A stretch of DNA of 5,621 bases from a virus (lineage: Duplodnaviria; Heunggongvirae; Uroviricota; Caudoviricetes), in IMG/VR virus record IMGVR_UViG_2563366946_000003; one strand, 5' to 3'. The notes below the pieces were generated by a model. It had not been told where the DNA came from. It did no database searches and saw only the letters and a program-made list of their open reading frames with translations. Of this stretch, positions 1 to 5,621 are shown piece after piece (the stretch's first letter is position 1; each line of letters opens with the position of its first letter). A program made the translations under genes and the position numbers.

Positions 1-77
1 GAGTCTTGAGTCTTGAGTCTTGAGTCTTGAGTCTTGAGTCTTGAGTCTTGAGTCTTGAGTCTTGAGTCTTGAGTCTT
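1..77. repeat. Perfect tandem heptanucleotide repeat (GAGTCTT)x11, beginning at the window edge so the array may be longer
   Basis: Direct reading: 11 uninterrupted GAGTCTT units at 1-77, followed by AAC. The plus strand has TGA in every frame; the minus strand (AAGACTC)n has no stop in any frame. Confidence 0.95.
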
Positions 78-235
78 AACATATTAGTATCCTACGTTAT
101 TTTACCACTAGTTACTTTTCTTGTCATTAAAAAGCATTTAAATTTTTATATTTAATTTCGTTGACGTCAATGTTTTTTGCCAATGTACTTACTTCTTTAT
201 GTGATCAGTTCATATTTTTGACGCCAACGAAACAT

Positions 236-1207
236 TTAGTGCTTCCCTTCTATTAAGTCTAACCTAGCTTTTATTCTTTCTATTTCTCTGCGCTGCCATG
301 CTGCCTCGATATAGAATAAGAGATCAGGTCTGACCCCCCATCTAGATCCTGCTGGCGTTATTTCAACGCGCTCAATGATGTCTTCCATTACCATCACTGG
401 ATTATCATCCTCATCAACAATGATGCTCCCGTCATTATCAGTCAGCGGCATTTCCCTTTGGCCAGTAATGACGTCATCATATACTGCGGGATAATCGTCA
501 TAGCAAAGAAAGGCATAGCGGCATGTTGTGCTTTCTTCTTCCATGAGTCCGTGAGAAATAAGAACATCACGAAGTTGCTGCGCGATTACACCATGATGTA
601 TCCTCGCCCCTTCTTCCCCCTTTATAGCGACAGCGTTCAGCCATTTATAAGCGATATACCTGACGTCACCCCAGGCATCCAGCAATGTTTCGTCAGGAGA
701 GACCGGCTCTGTCTTTAATGTTCCGTCACTGGTAGCCACAGGATTGGAGCCAAGATAAACTATCGAGAACCTGTTTCCCGGACCACCAAGAGCATTTACA
801 TTATCAAGATAAGGTTTAACATCTCCGTTCTCAAAAAGATGTTCGAGTGCGTTATATACCGCGCGACGTGGAGTACTGCTTCTGGAACCATGCAACGTTA
901 TCATTGCACCATCTGCTGAAGACGTTGTTTCACCGCCGCTAACGATTAATCTCTGAGCGGTAACATCATCAGACGGTACTTTCTTCGCAATAATGGCGTA
1001 ATTACCCTCAAGTTTGACTTCCGCGCGAACTTGTCCTGATGTACCTGCATGGACAGTCAGTGACTGGACGGCAACATCATCTGTGAAATCAACGGGTACA
1101 GGAACCGTCCTCACGCCTGACGTCGACATAAAAGTAGGAAGCGTTCTGTTAGGAGTGGCTCCGTAGACAAAATCCCTTGAAACAAATTCTTCCTGTTTAA
1201 TTTTCAC
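236..1207 (-). CDS. Phage tail fiber/tailspike-like protein, C-terminal fragment with S74-type intramolecular chaperone (autoproteolytic) domain; 5' end probably truncated by IS629
   Basis: 323-aa ORF with TAA stop at 238-236. The C-terminal half carries the pattern I associate with S74 chaperone domains of tail fibers and endosialidases (ATSDGTLKT ... LDAWGDVRYIAYKW ... ARIHHGVIAQQLRDVL). The annotated start is a GTG only 4 bp from the IS629 left end at 1212, so the true N-terminus is most likely missing. Confidence 0.6.
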   Translation of the reverse strand: MKIKQEEFVSRDFVYGATPNRTLPTFMSTSGVRTVPVPVDFTDDVAVQSLTVHAGTSGQVRAEVKLEGNYAIIAKKVPSDDVTAQRLIVSGGETTSSADGAMITLHGSRSSTPRRAVYNALEHLFENGDVKPYLDNVNALGGPGNRFSIVYLGSNPVATSDGTLKTEPVSPDETLLDAWGDVRYIAYKWLNAVAIKGEEGARIHHGVIAQQLRDVLISHGLMEEESTTCRYAFLCYDDYPAVYDDVITGQREMPLTDNDGSIIVDEDDNPVMVMEDIIERVEITPAGSRWGVRPDLLFYIEAAWQRREIERIKARLDLIEGKH

Positions 1208-1211
1208 CCTG

Positions 1212-1236
1212 TGAACCGCCCCGGGAATCCTGGAGA
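1212..1236. repeat. IS629 left terminal inverted repeat (IRL)
   Basis: TGAACCGCCCCGGGAATCCTGGAGA matches the reverse complement of 2497-2521 at 23 of 25 positions. Confidence 0.8.
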
Positions 1237-1265
1237 CTAAACTTCCTGAGAAAGAGGTAAACAGG

Positions 1266-1592
1266 ATGACTAAAAATACTCGTTTTTCCCCCGAAGTCCG
1301 TCAACGGGCAGTCCGTATGGTTCTGGAAAGTCAGAGCGAATATGACTCACAATGGGCGACAATTTGTTCCATTGCTCCAAAGATTGGCTGTACGCCGGAG
1401 ACTCTGCGTGTCTGGGTTCGCCAGCATGAGCGGGATACCGGGGGCGGTGATGGAGGGCTCACCACCGCTGAACGTCAGCGTCTGAAAGAGCTGGAACGTG
1501 AAAAGCGTGAACTGCGCCGCAGTAACGATATCCTTCGCCAGGCTTCCGCTTATTTTGCGAAGGCGGAGTTCGACCGCCTCTGGAAAAAATGA
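1266..1592 (+). CDS. IS629 OrfA (IS3-family transposase N-terminal HTH/leucine-zipper subunit)
   Basis: 108 aa, [50 protein letters not shown]..., ATG 54 bp inside IRL. The heptad-like [24 protein letters not shown] stretch is typical of IS3 OrfA. Confidence 0.93.
1581..1592 (+). other. Probable programmed -1 ribosomal frameshift window (A6 run) joining OrfA and OrfB into the OrfAB transposase
   Basis: TGG AAA AAA TGA at the OrfA end; the OrfB ATG (1589-1591) is in the -1 frame and overlaps the A-run. IS3-family elements characteristically make OrfAB this way. Confidence 0.5.
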
Positions 1593-2479
1593 TGCCACTG
1601 CTGGATAAGCTGCGTGAGCAGTACGGGGTCGGACCGCTATGCAGCGAACTGCATATTGCCCCGTCAACGTATTACCACTGTCAGCAACAGCGACATCATC
1701 CGGATAAACGCAGTGCCCGTGCGCAGCGCGATGACTGGCTGAAGAAAGAGATACAGCGCGTATACGATGAAAATCACAAGGTATACGGTGTGCGTAAAGT
1801 CTGGCGTCAGTTGTTACGGGAAGGTATCAGAGTGGCCAGATGCACTGTGGCACGTCTCATGGCGGTTATGGGACTTGCCGGTGTTCTCCGGGGTAAAAAG
1901 GTCCGTACGACCATCAGCCGGAAAGCCGTTGCCGCAGGCGACCGCGTAAACCGTCAGTTCGTGGCAGAACGACCTGACCAGCTGTGGGTGGCTGATTTTA
2001 CTTACGTCAGCACATGGCGGGGCTTCGTCTATGTGGCGTTCATCATTGATGTGTTTGCCGGATACATCGTGGGGTGGCGGGTCTCATCGTCCATGGAAAC
2101 GACATTCGTGCTGGATGCACTGGAGCAGGCGTTATGGGCCCGTCGACCGTCCGGCACGGTCCATCACAGTGATAAAGGTTCTCAGTATGTATCGCTGGCC
2201 TACACACAGCGGCTTAAGGAAGCCGGATTACTGGCATCAACAGGAAGTACAGGCGACTCGTATGACAACGCGATGGCGGAGAGCATCAATGGTCTTTACA
2301 AAGCGGAGGTAATACACCGTAAGAGCTGGAAAAACCGTGCAGAAGTGGAACTGGCCACACTCACGTGGGTGGACTGGTATAACAATCGACGATTGCTGGA
2401 AAGGCTGGGCCATACTCCTCCGGCAGAAGCAGAAAAAGCTTATTATGCTTCCATCGGAAACGATGATCTGGCAGCCTGA
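1589..2479 (+). CDS. IS629 OrfB (IS3-family transposase catalytic DDE domain)
   Basis: 296 aa in the -1 frame relative to OrfA. DDE-type core visible (WVADFTYV ... HHSDKGSQY ... [11 protein letters not shown]). Confidence 0.93.
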
Positions 2480-2496
2480 GTTCACAGATAAAACAC

Positions 2497-2521
2497 TCTC
2501 CAGGAAACCCGGGGCGGTTCA
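2497..2521. repeat. IS629 right terminal inverted repeat (IRR)
   Basis: Reverse complement reads TGAACCGCCCCGGGTTTCCTGGAGA, matching IRL at 23 of 25 positions. Confidence 0.8.
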
Positions 2522-2776
2522 TCTAAAATTGCTATACTATTCATGTTGGTTTTTCTCCACGGATTTACCGACAACCGAAGCCCTGACTGTTCCAGCAGTT
2601 GGGGCTTCACTGTTTTGATTTCTTTGCCGCATCAAGCATCACTTCTGAAAACGTGCGCTTGCCACTGAATACTCTTTCTCTTCTCAATTTTTCGTTCGTG
2701 CCAAATGATTCGCCATGAACAAAATTTGGTCTTAAAATGGTAATCGCAATCTCTTTGACTACTGCATCCAAGCGAA

Positions 2777-2929
2777 TCACACCGTTACCCCCTCTCTCTT
2801 CAGGCTGTCTATCAGGCGCTTGATAACCTCTGAGTTAAACGACCTGCACTCTTCCTTTGCCCTGCTACCGATAGCATCCTTTAACGACTGCGGCATCCTT
2901 ACCAAAATCTTACTTATTTCTTTCTCCAT
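2777..2929 (-). CDS. Arc-like ribbon-helix-helix (Arc/MetJ superfamily) transcriptional repressor, 50 aa
   Basis: MEKEISKILVRMPQSLKDAIGSRAKEECRSFNSEVIKRLIDSLKREGVTV; the RSFNSEV...SLKREG region resembles P22 Arc (GRSVNSEIYQRVMESFKKEG, from memory). I chose the ATG at 2929 because GGAGGG sits 4 nt upstream; the track's longer ORF (to 2965) starts at a TTG with no RBS. Confidence 0.7.
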   Translation of the reverse strand: MEKEISKILVRMPQSLKDAIGSRAKEECRSFNSEVIKRLIDSLKREGVTV

Positions 2930-2965
2930 GTTACCCTCCACGCAAACAACTCTTTTCGAATACAA

Positions 2966-2994
2966 AAGATAGCAAAGTGAGTATATCTAGTCAA
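2966..2994 (-). promoter_or_regulatory. Putative sigma70-like promoter for the Arc-like gene
   Basis: On the minus strand, TTGACT (plus 2994-2989), a 17-nt spacer, then TATCTT (plus 2971-2966). The -10 overlaps the left operator arm. Pattern match only. Confidence 0.25.
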
Positions 2995-3020
2995 AATTTT
3001 TTTGCATACACTTTGCTATC
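2968..3020. promoter_or_regulatory. Candidate operator: 12-bp perfect inverted repeat GATAGCAAAGTG (2968-2979) / CACTTTGCTATC (3009-3020), 29-bp spacer, between the divergent RHH genes
   Basis: Exact reverse-complement arms read directly from the sequence. They lie between the two RHH start codons and overlap both putative -10 elements. Confidence 0.45.
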
Positions 3021-3022
3021 AA
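3014..3022 (+). promoter_or_regulatory. Putative extended -10 element (TGcTATCAA) for the Mnt-like/peptidase operon
   Basis: TG-n-TATCAA about 22 nt upstream of the ATG at 3044; overlaps the right operator arm. No convincing -35 found. Confidence 0.2.
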
Positions 3023-3043
3023 ATTGAATACCAAAGGTGTTAT

Positions 3044-3292
3044 ATGGCAAAGGGTGTGTCAATTTCTCCAACTACGGTAAGAATCCCTGAATCTTTACGC
3101 GAGGCTCTTGCTGTCAGAGCATCAAAAAATGGTCGCTCTGTTAACTCCGAGATCGTCATGATTTTGCAAGCCGCGATTGATGAAGATAGGTCGCCAAAGT
3201 CAGTTGAGTCATTTGCTCAGCAAGAAGCTGATAAATTCAAAGAGGCGCTACTTGAGACGCTAAAGACCATGTATGCTAAGGATGAAAAATAA
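3044..3292 (+). CDS. Mnt-like ribbon-helix-helix (Arc/MetJ superfamily) repressor, 82 aa
   Basis: MAKGVSISPTTVRIPESLREALAVRASKNGRSVNSEIVMILQAAIDEDR...LKTMYAKDEK resembles P22 Mnt in length, in the NGRS(V/M)NSE motif and in the C-terminal ...LK(D/T)(L/M)Y(K/A)K tail (from memory). AGGTG lies 6 nt upstream of the ATG at 3044; the track's 14-codon N-terminal extension has no RBS. Confidence 0.75.
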   Translation: MAKGVSISPTTVRIPESLREALAVRASKNGRSVNSEIVMILQAAIDEDRSPKSVESFAQQEADKFKEALLETLKTMYAKDEK

Positions 3293-3828
3293 TGCTGCAC
3301 ACAATTCATTTCTTATGCCCTGTTAACACTGCCACTGTTGGGCAACTTCAGAACCACTGTCTCACCGCATTATCTCAAGGCGCAACTGAATTAAATATCC
3401 ATATATCAAGTCAGGGAGGGGAAACTGCTGCTGGCTTTACTGCGTATAACTTTCTTAAGTCACTCCCTGTTACCGTTAGAACTCACAACATAAGCAATGT
3501 TGAATCCATAGCTAATATCGTTTTCCTGGCTGGCTCAGAACGTTTCGCAAACCCATTATCAAGATTCCTGTTACATCCTCTATTATGGTGCTTTGCCTCC
3601 CCAGCCGCCGACCATGCCAGATTGAGAGAGTACGGGAAATGCCTCGATAACGATCTTGATCGCTTCGTTGAGACGTTCAATATCGACATCGGAACCCATA
3701 TTAGGTGGGCATCCCTGATAGCAGACTCGACCATTTTGGATGCTAACAAGGCTCTTGAGCATGGCATAATTAATTCCATAAAAACTGCAAGGCTGGCATC
3801 CAATCAGGCAAACTGGTGGGTTGTTTGA
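3292..3828 (+). CDS. Stand-alone ClpP-fold (S14-like) serine peptidase, 178 aa, translationally coupled to the Mnt-like gene
   Basis: ISSQGGETAAGFTAYNFL aligns with the ClpP [20 protein letters not shown] motif. By manual alignment the ClpP catalytic Ser and His fall on S72 (NVESIAN) and H95 (SRFLLHP), and the C-terminal ALEHGIINSI resembles ClpP AVEYGLVDSI. Its ATG overlaps the Mnt-like TAA (TAATG at 3290-3294). Confidence 0.75.
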   Translation: MLHTIHFLCPVNTATVGQLQNHCLTALSQGATELNIHISSQGGETAAGFTAYNFLKSLPVTVRTHNISNVESIANIVFLAGSERFANPLSRFLLHPLLWCFASPAADHARLREYGKCLDNDLDRFVETFNIDIGTHIRWASLIADSTILDANKALEHGIINSIKTARLASNQANWWVV

Positions 3829-3852
3829 TGGGTAAATCATGATTACTCCTTA

Positions 3853-3879
3853 TAAAAAACCCACCTGACGGTGGGTTTA
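3853..3879. terminator. Bidirectional rho-independent terminator between the convergent peptidase and YafO-like genes
   Basis: ACCCACC (3859-3865), loop TGAC, GGTGGGT (3870-3876), with A6 upstream and TTT downstream. On the minus strand the hairpin is followed by TTTTTTATA. Confidence 0.6.
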
Positions 3880-4326
3880 GTCAAACATAGTGTTTCTAAA
3901 GTCTCTCGCATACCCTGCTAACACTCTCATTCTATTATGATTGTTAGCAGACATGTGAGCTACAGGATGAAAAAGAGCAATCAATGAATACCTGTTCTCA
4001 TCAAAAAGATTTTGTGCATAAACGAGAGCGGTATTGGATGTTTTATGCCACTGCAACTTTTGCGGTGTGCTGATATCTGTGCCATTTTTTATTGGCTCAA
4101 ATTTATTTTCACCAATTGCTAAATGAAGGTGCATAAGGCCTGCATCTTCAATATCAGGAGGTCGATGATAAGAGGTGTCTCTGCCAAAATAGCTGGGCAA
4201 CGTTCCCGTAGACTTGTAGATGATAAAATCATCTACAAGTGTTTGTTTTAAATCAGGAAACTCAACAAAAACCGGGGAGAAAAAATAGTCAAAACTATCC
4301 TGATTATATTCCACGGTTACTTGCAT
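3877..4326 (-). CDS. YafO-family toxin homologue (type II TA ribosome-dependent mRNA interferase family), 149 aa
   Basis: DDFIIYKSTGTLPSYFGRDTSYH ... MHLHLAIGEN ... ALVYAQNLFDENRYSLIALFHP ... NNHNRM aligns well by eye with E. coli YafO as I recall it (ADFISYKRDGVLPDTFGRDALYD ... AHIHLANEN ... HLVYCQGAFDEQAWLLIAILKP ... DNNQMH). GAGGT RBS lies 5 nt upstream of the ATG. Confidence 0.7.
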   Translation of the reverse strand: MQVTVEYNQDSFDYFFSPVFVEFPDLKQTLVDDFIIYKSTGTLPSYFGRDTSYHRPPDIEDAGLMHLHLAIGENKFEPIKNGTDISTPQKLQWHKTSNTALVYAQNLFDENRYSLIALFHPVAHMSANNHNRMRVLAGYARDFRNTMFD

Positions 4327-4334
4327 GTTTTACC

Positions 4335-4901
4335 TCAGTGGAAGTTACCAGAGTGAAACACACGAGTCCCGTGCTCAGCAAGCGCACGCAAACCAGCCAT
4401 ATCTACGGAACTATCAAAAACAACCGGAACACATGAGCGTTGTTTAATAAGACTATTCAGGTTGGTTACGGCAGATCTGGCATCAGCAACAACGATATAG
4501 ATATCTCTTGCGATCTCTTTAAAATCAGCAGAAGCTTCTTTGAATACCGATTTCATTGCCCCTTCAAGTCCTCTCAATTGATGCTCTATCAATCGAGACT
4601 TTTCTGGTTCAATGATAGACAACACATTGTCTACATTCTCATCGGTAGCGTTTGCAAGAACACGATAAGCGTATTTCAGCATTCGAGACAATTCTTTAAT
4701 CGAAGACACCGCCTCATGAAGCTCATCATTAGCCCGTTCACTGCTGAATGAGGATTGATGGTAAGCGTGCTGAACGTTATCAGTAACAACCACCTCACAA
4801 CTGAACGCAGAAGCTTGCTGTAATAGCAAACCTATTGCGACTCCAGCTTTGGCAGCGTTCAAGCTAAACATTTCATCAATCCCATTAGTCTCATTGCTCA
4901 T
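4335..4901 (-). CDS. Hypothetical 188-aa protein encoded immediately upstream of, and co-operonic with, the YafO-like toxin; family not recognised
   Basis: Start placed at ATG 4901 (MSNETNGIDEMF...) because a perfect AAGGAGG lies 5 nt upstream; the track's TTG start at 4931 lies upstream of that RBS. The TGA stop (4337-4335) is 8 nt from the toxin ATG and overlaps its RBS. Not Phd/YefM/YafN-like in size or sequence. Confidence 0.6.
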   Translation of the reverse strand: MSNETNGIDEMFSLNAAKAGVAIGLLLQQASAFSCEVVVTDNVQHAYHQSSFSSERANDELHEAVSSIKELSRMLKYAYRVLANATDENVDNVLSIIEPEKSRLIEHQLRGLEGAMKSVFKEASADFKEIARDIYIVVADARSAVTNLNSLIKQRSCVPVVFDSSVDMAGLRALAEHGTRVFHSGNFH

Positions 4902-5076
4902 ACAAACCTCCTTCTTATCGGAGATTATCAATAGCTATGCATCCATTGAATACACGCTATGCGCAATAAGTTTACGTCACGTGATATCATTATGCAACCA
5001 CCGTTCTATCACCGACTAACTTTACTCCCACTCCTATACATCATCTGGTATCCTGCGCAAAACTAAGGAGGTTGGT

Positions 5077-5427
5077 GTGAATGCTCAGTCTGTCATCATG
5101 GTTTTCCTTGGGCTGATTGTCGCAAAACTATATCCAGACTGGTGGAAAGGGGCATTAGCTACTGTCGCCATCTATTTGCTTTTATCCATCGTTAAGCGAT
5201 CACTCGCTGAGACCGTAAATCAAGCAAAACGTTTCTCATTTAAGAGTTTAATAAACTATGTTACTGGGCTTATTTTTTGCCTTTCAATTCTGATCGCTTC
5301 GGCTTTTTTGCCCGTATCAATAGCTAATTTTTTTGGCGCACCATATGAGGTAGGTTATCTATTCTCTGTTTCCTGTCTTGCCATTGCTCTTCTTTACCTG
5401 TGGACGAGATCAAAGAATAAAAATTAG
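5077..5427 (+). CDS. Small integral membrane protein, 116 aa, about 4 predicted TM helices; function unknown
   Basis: GTG start at 5077 preceded by AAGGAGG (5064-5070). Four hydrophobic stretches: SVIMVFLGLIVAKLY, ALATVAIYLLLSIV, LINYVTGLIFCLSILIASAFL, GYLFSVSCLAIALLYLW. Confidence 0.6.
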   Translation: MNAQSVIMVFLGLIVAKLYPDWWKGALATVAIYLLLSIVKRSLAETVNQAKRFSFKSLINYVTGLIFCLSILIASAFLPVSIANFFGAPYEVGYLFSVSCLAIALLYLWTRSKNKN

Positions 5428-5551
5428 CCATCCGTGGCTGCCAGTTATTGAGCTTCTTTTTGTGATGCCTGTGCGACTCTGGTGAGCGATTGTGTGACCG
5501 TACTGATCGCTCTGTCATATGCTGTGCTACCTTTTGGCGTATTTGCCAGAC

Positions 5552-5621
5552 TGAACCGCCCCGGGAATCCTGGAGACTAAACTTCCTGAGAAAGAGGTAA
5601 ACAGGATGACTAAAAATACTC
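5552..5621 (+). mobile_element. Second IS629 copy, left end only (continues beyond the window), same orientation as the first
   Basis: 5552-5621 is identical to 1212-1281 (IRL plus the start of OrfA). Confidence 0.9.
5606..5621 (+). CDS. IS629 OrfA, 5' partial (second copy)
   Basis: ATGACTAAAAATACTC, identical to the start of OrfA at 1266. Confidence 0.85.

Follow-up and report, generated by a model that had tools for sequence, protein, structure and literature searches.

Results

Genes and features of the window

The analysed stretch of DNA, referred to as the window in the following, comprises 5,621 nt of the viral record IMGVR_UViG_2563366946_000003 (Caudoviricetes). From left to right, it holds a heptamer array that is cut by the window edge, the 3' part of a tailspike gene, a complete IS element, a set of P22-type immI elements, several cargo and hypothetical genes, and the start of a second IS copy. 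The gene names used in the following list anticipate the assignment discussed below.

1-77, minus strand: neuO poly-psi VNTR with 11 perfect 5'-AAGACTC-3' units, cut by the window edge and encoding RLKTQDS heptads (TRF, translation, annotation of CP000711)
78-82, minus strand: neuO start codon ATG (82-80) and the two bases TT before the array
90-93, minus strand: Shine-Dalgarno-like AGGA 7 nt before the ATG, of presumed function (direct sequence reading)
94-235, minus strand: non-coding spacer from the tailspike stop to neuO, the presumed neuO promoter region
236-1211, minus strand: 3' remnant of siaK1, the CUS-3 endosialidase tailspike gene, with its C-terminal 323 codons (99.9% identity to siaK1 of CP000711)
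1212-2521, plus strand: IS3-family element of 1310 bp with orfA (1266-1592), orfB (1589-2479) and an ALIL frameshift pseudoknot (1547-1663)
2522-2544, minus strand: ant remnant, i.e., the first 23 nt of the gene
2545-2611, plus strand: P22-type sar antisense RNA (Rfam RF00262, 83.9 bits)
2607-2780: small hypothetical gene
2777-2929: arc
3044-3292: second Arc-family gene at the mnt position
3292-3828, plus strand: ClpP-like protease gene
3877-4326, minus strand: YafO-family toxin gene
4335-4901, minus strand: hypothetical gene (188 aa)
5098-5427: hypothetical gene
5445-5551, minus strand: 3' end of an ejection/injection protein gene
from 5552 (5552-5621): second copy of the IS at 1212-2521, in the same orientation

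The cargo cluster (3292-4901) sits between immI and the ejection genes. Within it, the 188-aa protein could be the partner of the adjacent YafO-family toxin.

The repeat array and its reading frame

A sequence-only reading of the window had described an 11-fold GAGTCTT repeat spanning positions 1-137. TRF and a regular expression check both recover the 11 units (period 7, 11.0 copies, 100% matches, zero indels) and place them at positions 1-77; the remaining part of that interval (78-137) carries the ATG, the Shine-Dalgarno sequence and non-coding DNA upstream of them. No further tandem repeat was found by TRF in the window. A perfect period-7 repeat of 77 bases cannot have arisen by chance. 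Since the array meets the window edge, exactly in register, the number of 11 units is a lower bound, i.e., the present isolate has at least 11 copies.

The minus strand is open in all three frames along the array and every plus-strand frame is closed, as had been noted before; the plus-strand stop is TGA in each case. The minus-strand ATG at 82-80 and the AGGA upstream of it (93-90, 7 nt spacer) are located where the sequence-only reading had placed them. The array begins 2 nt past the ATG, i.e., the minus strand reads ATG TT + (AAGACTC)n. Translation from this ATG yields MLRLKTQDSRLKTQDS..., i.e., MLRLKTQDS(RLKTQDS)n, and exits the left window edge. The repeat peptide had thus been identified correctly, while its given form LKTQDSR is a rotation of the heptad that is published as RLKTQDS.

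We also scanned positions 1-400 for promoters. Three consensus-like sites were found compared to 1.2 +/- 1.2 in shuffled sequences, which is not significant. The putative consensus-like -35/-10 pairs are located at 170-142 and 127-99. The latter candidate is not endorsed, since the transcription start would land inside the Shine-Dalgarno sequence. A terminator-like site was not found in the scanned upstream region.

Assignment to neuO of prophage CUS-3

The window matches E. coli chromosomes at 99-100% identity, namely within a prophage beside tRNA-Arg and intS. The window flanks share 99.9-100% identity with CUS-3 prophages located at argW/intS (APEC O1, FY26, S88, others), and window positions 78-1211 show 99.9% identity to phage CUS-3 (CP000711, host E. 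coli RS218). The latter record annotates 'neuO ... poly(psi) domain' with 19 copies of AAGACTC between int and siaK1. The gene order in the window is in accordance with this position, i.e., the 3' end of siaK1, which is the gene immediately upstream of neuO, is found at 236-1211, and P22-type immI elements (arc, mnt-like, sar RNA) follow further right. The genes int and argW lie outside of the window, yet they are present in every colinear genome. Judged by its sequence, the window covers that end of CUS-3, a P22-like prophage of E. coli K1, where the tailspike and immI are located.

The protein encoded beyond the array can be read from genomes with identical flanks. There, the frame enters a 214-aa acetyltransferase body, such that the open reading frame expected past the array does exist. 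In APEC O1 (39 units) and FY26 (27 units), an annotated acetyltransferase/acyltransferase CDS starts at the same ATG, and the translation of both CDSs is MLRLKTQDS(RLKTQDS)n followed by the 214-aa body. The array-containing CDS of FY26 matches PDB entry 3jqy ('polysialic acid O-acetyltransferase') with 100% identity over 242 aa (E-value 1.6e-160), and its protein contains the Pfam domain Hexapep. The next closest solved homologue of the NeuO body is OatWY from Neisseria meningitidis (PDB 2wlc, E-value 5.9e-31), a left-handed beta-helix sialate O-acetyltransferase; this match is limited to the catalytic body (query residues 88-271) and does not extend into an RLKTQDS heptad region.

Given these data, the array is almost certainly the 5' coding VNTR ('poly-psi' motif, 5'-AAGACTC-3') of neuO, which encodes the polysialic-acid O-acetyltransferase, and a slippage-driven switch. 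In the feature itself, we observe no difference to the neuO poly-psi of CUS-3: the unit is 5'-AAGACTC-3', it starts 2 nt after the ATG, the upstream sequence and the tailspike neighbour are 99.9-100% identical, and the protein downstream in genomes with identical flanks is the one of PDB 3jqy. What differs is the surrounding prophage, which is IS-eroded here and, right of ant, unlike the RS218 reference phage.

Erosion of the prophage

The window is colinear with APEC O1 up to position 1211. Compared to this intact prophage, the IS at 1212-2521 took the place of 2950 bp of prophage DNA, i.e., the N-terminal two-thirds of the endosialidase tailspike and all of ant except 23 nt were lost. The sar RNA is intact although its target gene ant is cut to these first 23 nt. 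The terminal inverted repeats of the element start TGAACCGCCCCGGG, and its counterpart in related genomes is annotated as 'IS3 family transposase, programmed frameshift'. From its inverted repeats and its length, the element may resemble IS629/IS3411. The second IS copy cuts the 3' end of the ejection/injection protein gene (5445-5551). None of the related complete genomes examined shows an IS at the exact site 5552, and the window as a whole is colinear with none of the complete E. coli genomes, among which the best matches differ in IS position. An exact look-up of the truncated tailspike ORF (323 aa) returned no record. When comparing positions 2522-5551 with phages, the best match covers only 45%, and the CUS-3 reference record is not among the ten best-covering ones. 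This part of the CUS-3 family is therefore mosaic. Overall, CUS-3 is present here as a defective, IS-eroded remnant.

Such erosion raises the question of whether neuO itself has been deleted or inactivated beyond the window edge, so that the array would be left as a functionless VNTR. Besides the 2950 bp lost to the IS3-family element and the second IS copy inside the ejection-protein gene, the IS1 element in the neuO flank-to-flank span of one related genome (FDAARGOS_1296) speaks for such a relic. On the other hand, the window matches functional alleles without any difference over the 158 bp from the array to the tailspike stop codon, a segment that comprises the start codon of neuO and the region upstream of it. 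Furthermore, every related genome examined has an intact NeuO body (100% over 214 aa). These genomes include two remnants with comparable IS erosion (MS20673, FDAARGOS_1301), in which int and an array of 11 units are intact as well. We thus regard a dead relic as very improbable. Because these similarly eroded remnants keep a 100% intact body, we infer that the NeuO body probably lies just left of position 1 and is intact in the present isolate as well.

Copy-number variation and the frame rule

To assess the array among related genomes, we joined 300 bp of the neuO body to the 300 bp upstream of the array and used the result as query against complete E. coli genomes. Matches were obtained in 194 of the 5426 genomes and both flanks in 157. 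For 84 genomes, the copy number was inferred from the flank-to-flank distance. It ranges from 5 to 60 units with 40 distinct values and a median of 25, i.e., the repeat number varies strongly among relatives, as the sequence-only reading had anticipated. Direct counts by TRF and regular expression agree with the spacing-based values (39, 27, 11, 11 and 19 copies). In FDAARGOS_1296 (NZ_CP070066.1, 1627817-1629213), the flank-to-flank span measures 1397 bp, with an annotated IS1A transposase under the match, which suggests an IS1 insertion in or beside the array.

The copy numbers distribute over the residues modulo 3 with 28/22/34 genomes, such that 33% of them are ON, very close to the published 34%. 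Gain or loss of a unit shifts the frame because 7 is not a multiple of three. The consequences can be followed in silico: alleles with n = 9, 12 and 27 units encode proteins of 237, 244 and 279 aa, while for n mod 3 = 1 a stop is reached 3 codons past the array (...LVFR*) and for n mod 3 = 2 a stop 19 codons past it. If the present isolate had exactly 11 units, as MS20673 and FDAARGOS_1301 do, its neuO would be OFF.

The annotation of the 84 genomes follows the same rule. An acyltransferase CDS lies under the match in 28/28 multiple-of-three genomes compared to 1/56 others. In this one case (EC28, 53 units), the call is 202 aa long, begins at an internal start and leaves out the array. Annotated CDSs that contain the array are confined to genomes with a multiple of three. 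OFF alleles are either left without annotation or reported by PGAP as an 'acyltransferase' shortened to an internal start (111 aa; 202 aa in EC28), with no flag for a frameshifted, phase-variable neuO. The contingency locus is therefore invisible in the annotation.

These observations also bear on whether the array might act on transcription, i.e., by altering promoter spacing or a regulator platform rather than the translational frame. DsdC ChIP-seq peaks are reported inside the neuO coding sequence and downstream of it, and the respective authors speculate on an effect on slippage or transcription (PMC9659370). However, the array starts 2 nt past the ATG and thus downstream of the Shine-Dalgarno sequence and any promoter, the ON/OFF status of the annotated CDS tracks the copy number modulo 3, which argues against transcription as the primary mechanism, and locked-ON constructs with a recoded repeat O-acetylate constitutively (PMC13001214). 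A transcriptional switch is hence hardly credible, and a translational one via the reading frame of neuO is preferred.

Heptamer arrays at other loci

We searched one-per-species genomes for exact (AAGACTC)x4 and found more than 120 loci, with several per genome in some cases (Acidobacteria MAG SZAS-13, Methylococcales symbiont of Iophon). Nearly all hosts are environmental MAGs (Planctomycetota, Acidobacteriota, the sponge Methylococcales symbiont, others), and the arrays mostly have 4 to 6 units. A NeuO body was found near none of these environmental loci. The idea that the AAGACTC heptamer is specific to neuO is thus rejected. Within the 835 kb of the environmental loci, there are 223 period-7 arrays with 59 different units, while any other period accounts for at most 36 arrays. 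Given the many other period-7 arrays, we consider the environmental AAGACTC arrays as a general heptamer-repeat phenomenon and not as relatives of neuO. Variant units such as AAGACTA or AGGACTC often lie next to them.

Among viral contigs with the array (n=19), the NeuO body is directly adjacent in 9, while 7 end inside the array. Short-read assemblies thus break at the VNTR, and copy numbers from draft assemblies are unreliable. That the count of exactly 11 is an artefact of assembly or window and biologically meaningless could be suspected from these seven contigs, from the array meeting the window edge, and from 77 bp being a common assembler k-mer length, but has a negligible probability as an account of the array, which is present in every CUS-3 genome checked, finished genomes included, such that only the count of 11 is uncertain. 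We likewise reject the idea that the window represents an entire short-read contig with collapsed repeats at its end: an IS that occurs more than once, both in the window and in related genomes, is contained in it as a complete internal copy, which is beyond the span of a short-read contig.

Discussion

The sequence-only interpretation of the array as a phase-variable gene start or hypervariable VNTR is supported and coincides with the published neuO poly-psi contingency locus (PMC3046976, PMC13001214; CP000711). This locus is already known, with its genetics, biochemistry and structure characterised experimentally, and the present array leaves the current understanding unchanged. It was described as a contingency locus by Deszo et al. 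2005 (PNAS) and King et al. 2007 (J Bacteriol), both as cited in PMC3046976. The AAGACTC unit, its position and its mechanism are described in PMC3046976, PMC13001214, PMC8653822 and PMC9659370.

According to the mechanism that we propose for the window, neuO would start at the minus-strand ATG (82-80), pass through the array and leave the window at its left edge. Slipped-strand mispairing in replication would add or remove 7-bp units, and the left-handed beta-helix catalytic body would be reached in the frame of the ATG only at copy numbers divisible by three (phase ON). For all other copy numbers, translation would end 3 or 19 codons past the array (phase OFF). Within ON alleles, each three units would add one more N-terminal RLKTQDS heptad. 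Since catalytic efficiency increases with the heptad number according to published enzymology, the array may be both switch and dial for K1 capsule O-acetylation.

The literature provides the experimental side of this picture. The 5'-AAGACTC-3' unit of the poly-psi motif occurs 2 to 93 times and readily undergoes strand slippage, active NeuO of full length is only produced at multiple-of-three copy numbers, and the catalytic efficiency of NeuO rises linearly with the number of RLKTQDS heptads (PMC3046976). neuO is present in 43.5% of 8,659 K1 genomes and in 88.1% of ST95; 64 complete genomes show 3 to 53 repeats with 65.6% being OFF (PMC13001214). Within a single MS7163 culture, 93%, 1.9% and 5.4% of the cells have 21, 20 and 22 repeats, respectively, and locked-ON constructs with the recoded repeat mentioned above result in constitutive O-acetylation (PMC13001214). 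An OFF-to-ON switch from 38 to 39 repeats was obtained after four passages (PMC8653822). Expression of neuO depends on DsdC, and NeuO protects from K1 phage (PMC9659370). In the present study, the array, its frame, the locus identity, the copy-number polymorphism and the frame consequences were shown; slippage rate, enzyme activity and the capsule, phage and neutrophil phenotypes are taken from the literature.

Contingency loci are also found in Haemophilus influenzae and Neisseria, e.g., the tetranucleotide repeats in lic and mod genes or the CTCTT pentamer in opa. Like neuO, they combine an intragenic tandem repeat, the unit length of which is not divisible by 3, with slipped-strand mispairing, with a translational switch that turns ON and OFF reversibly, and with a phenotype that concerns a surface structure or antigen. 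In contrast to these loci, neuO has a 7-bp unit and resides on an E. coli prophage. Furthermore, its repeat peptide is kept in the mature enzyme, where its length tunes catalytic efficiency (PMC3046976).

The neuO locus is tied to antigenicity, resistance to K1 phage and neutrophils, serum sensitivity, and Siglec recognition (PMC13001214, PMC9659370, PMC8653822). The present window illustrates that such a contingency locus can be recognised from the sequence alone and without tools, while automatic annotation hides it. What is new here, and only mildly so, is the retention of the switch in a prophage remnant that is IS-immobilised. It is conceivable, though we consider it rather doubtful, that the prophage was immobilised by its IS losses while neuO, its upstream region and the VNTR stayed, and that the contingency locus has perhaps become a fixed host gene by domestication, maintained because switchable O-acetylation of the capsule is selected for. 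If so, its repeat-length dynamics could differ from those of inducible CUS-3 lysogens.
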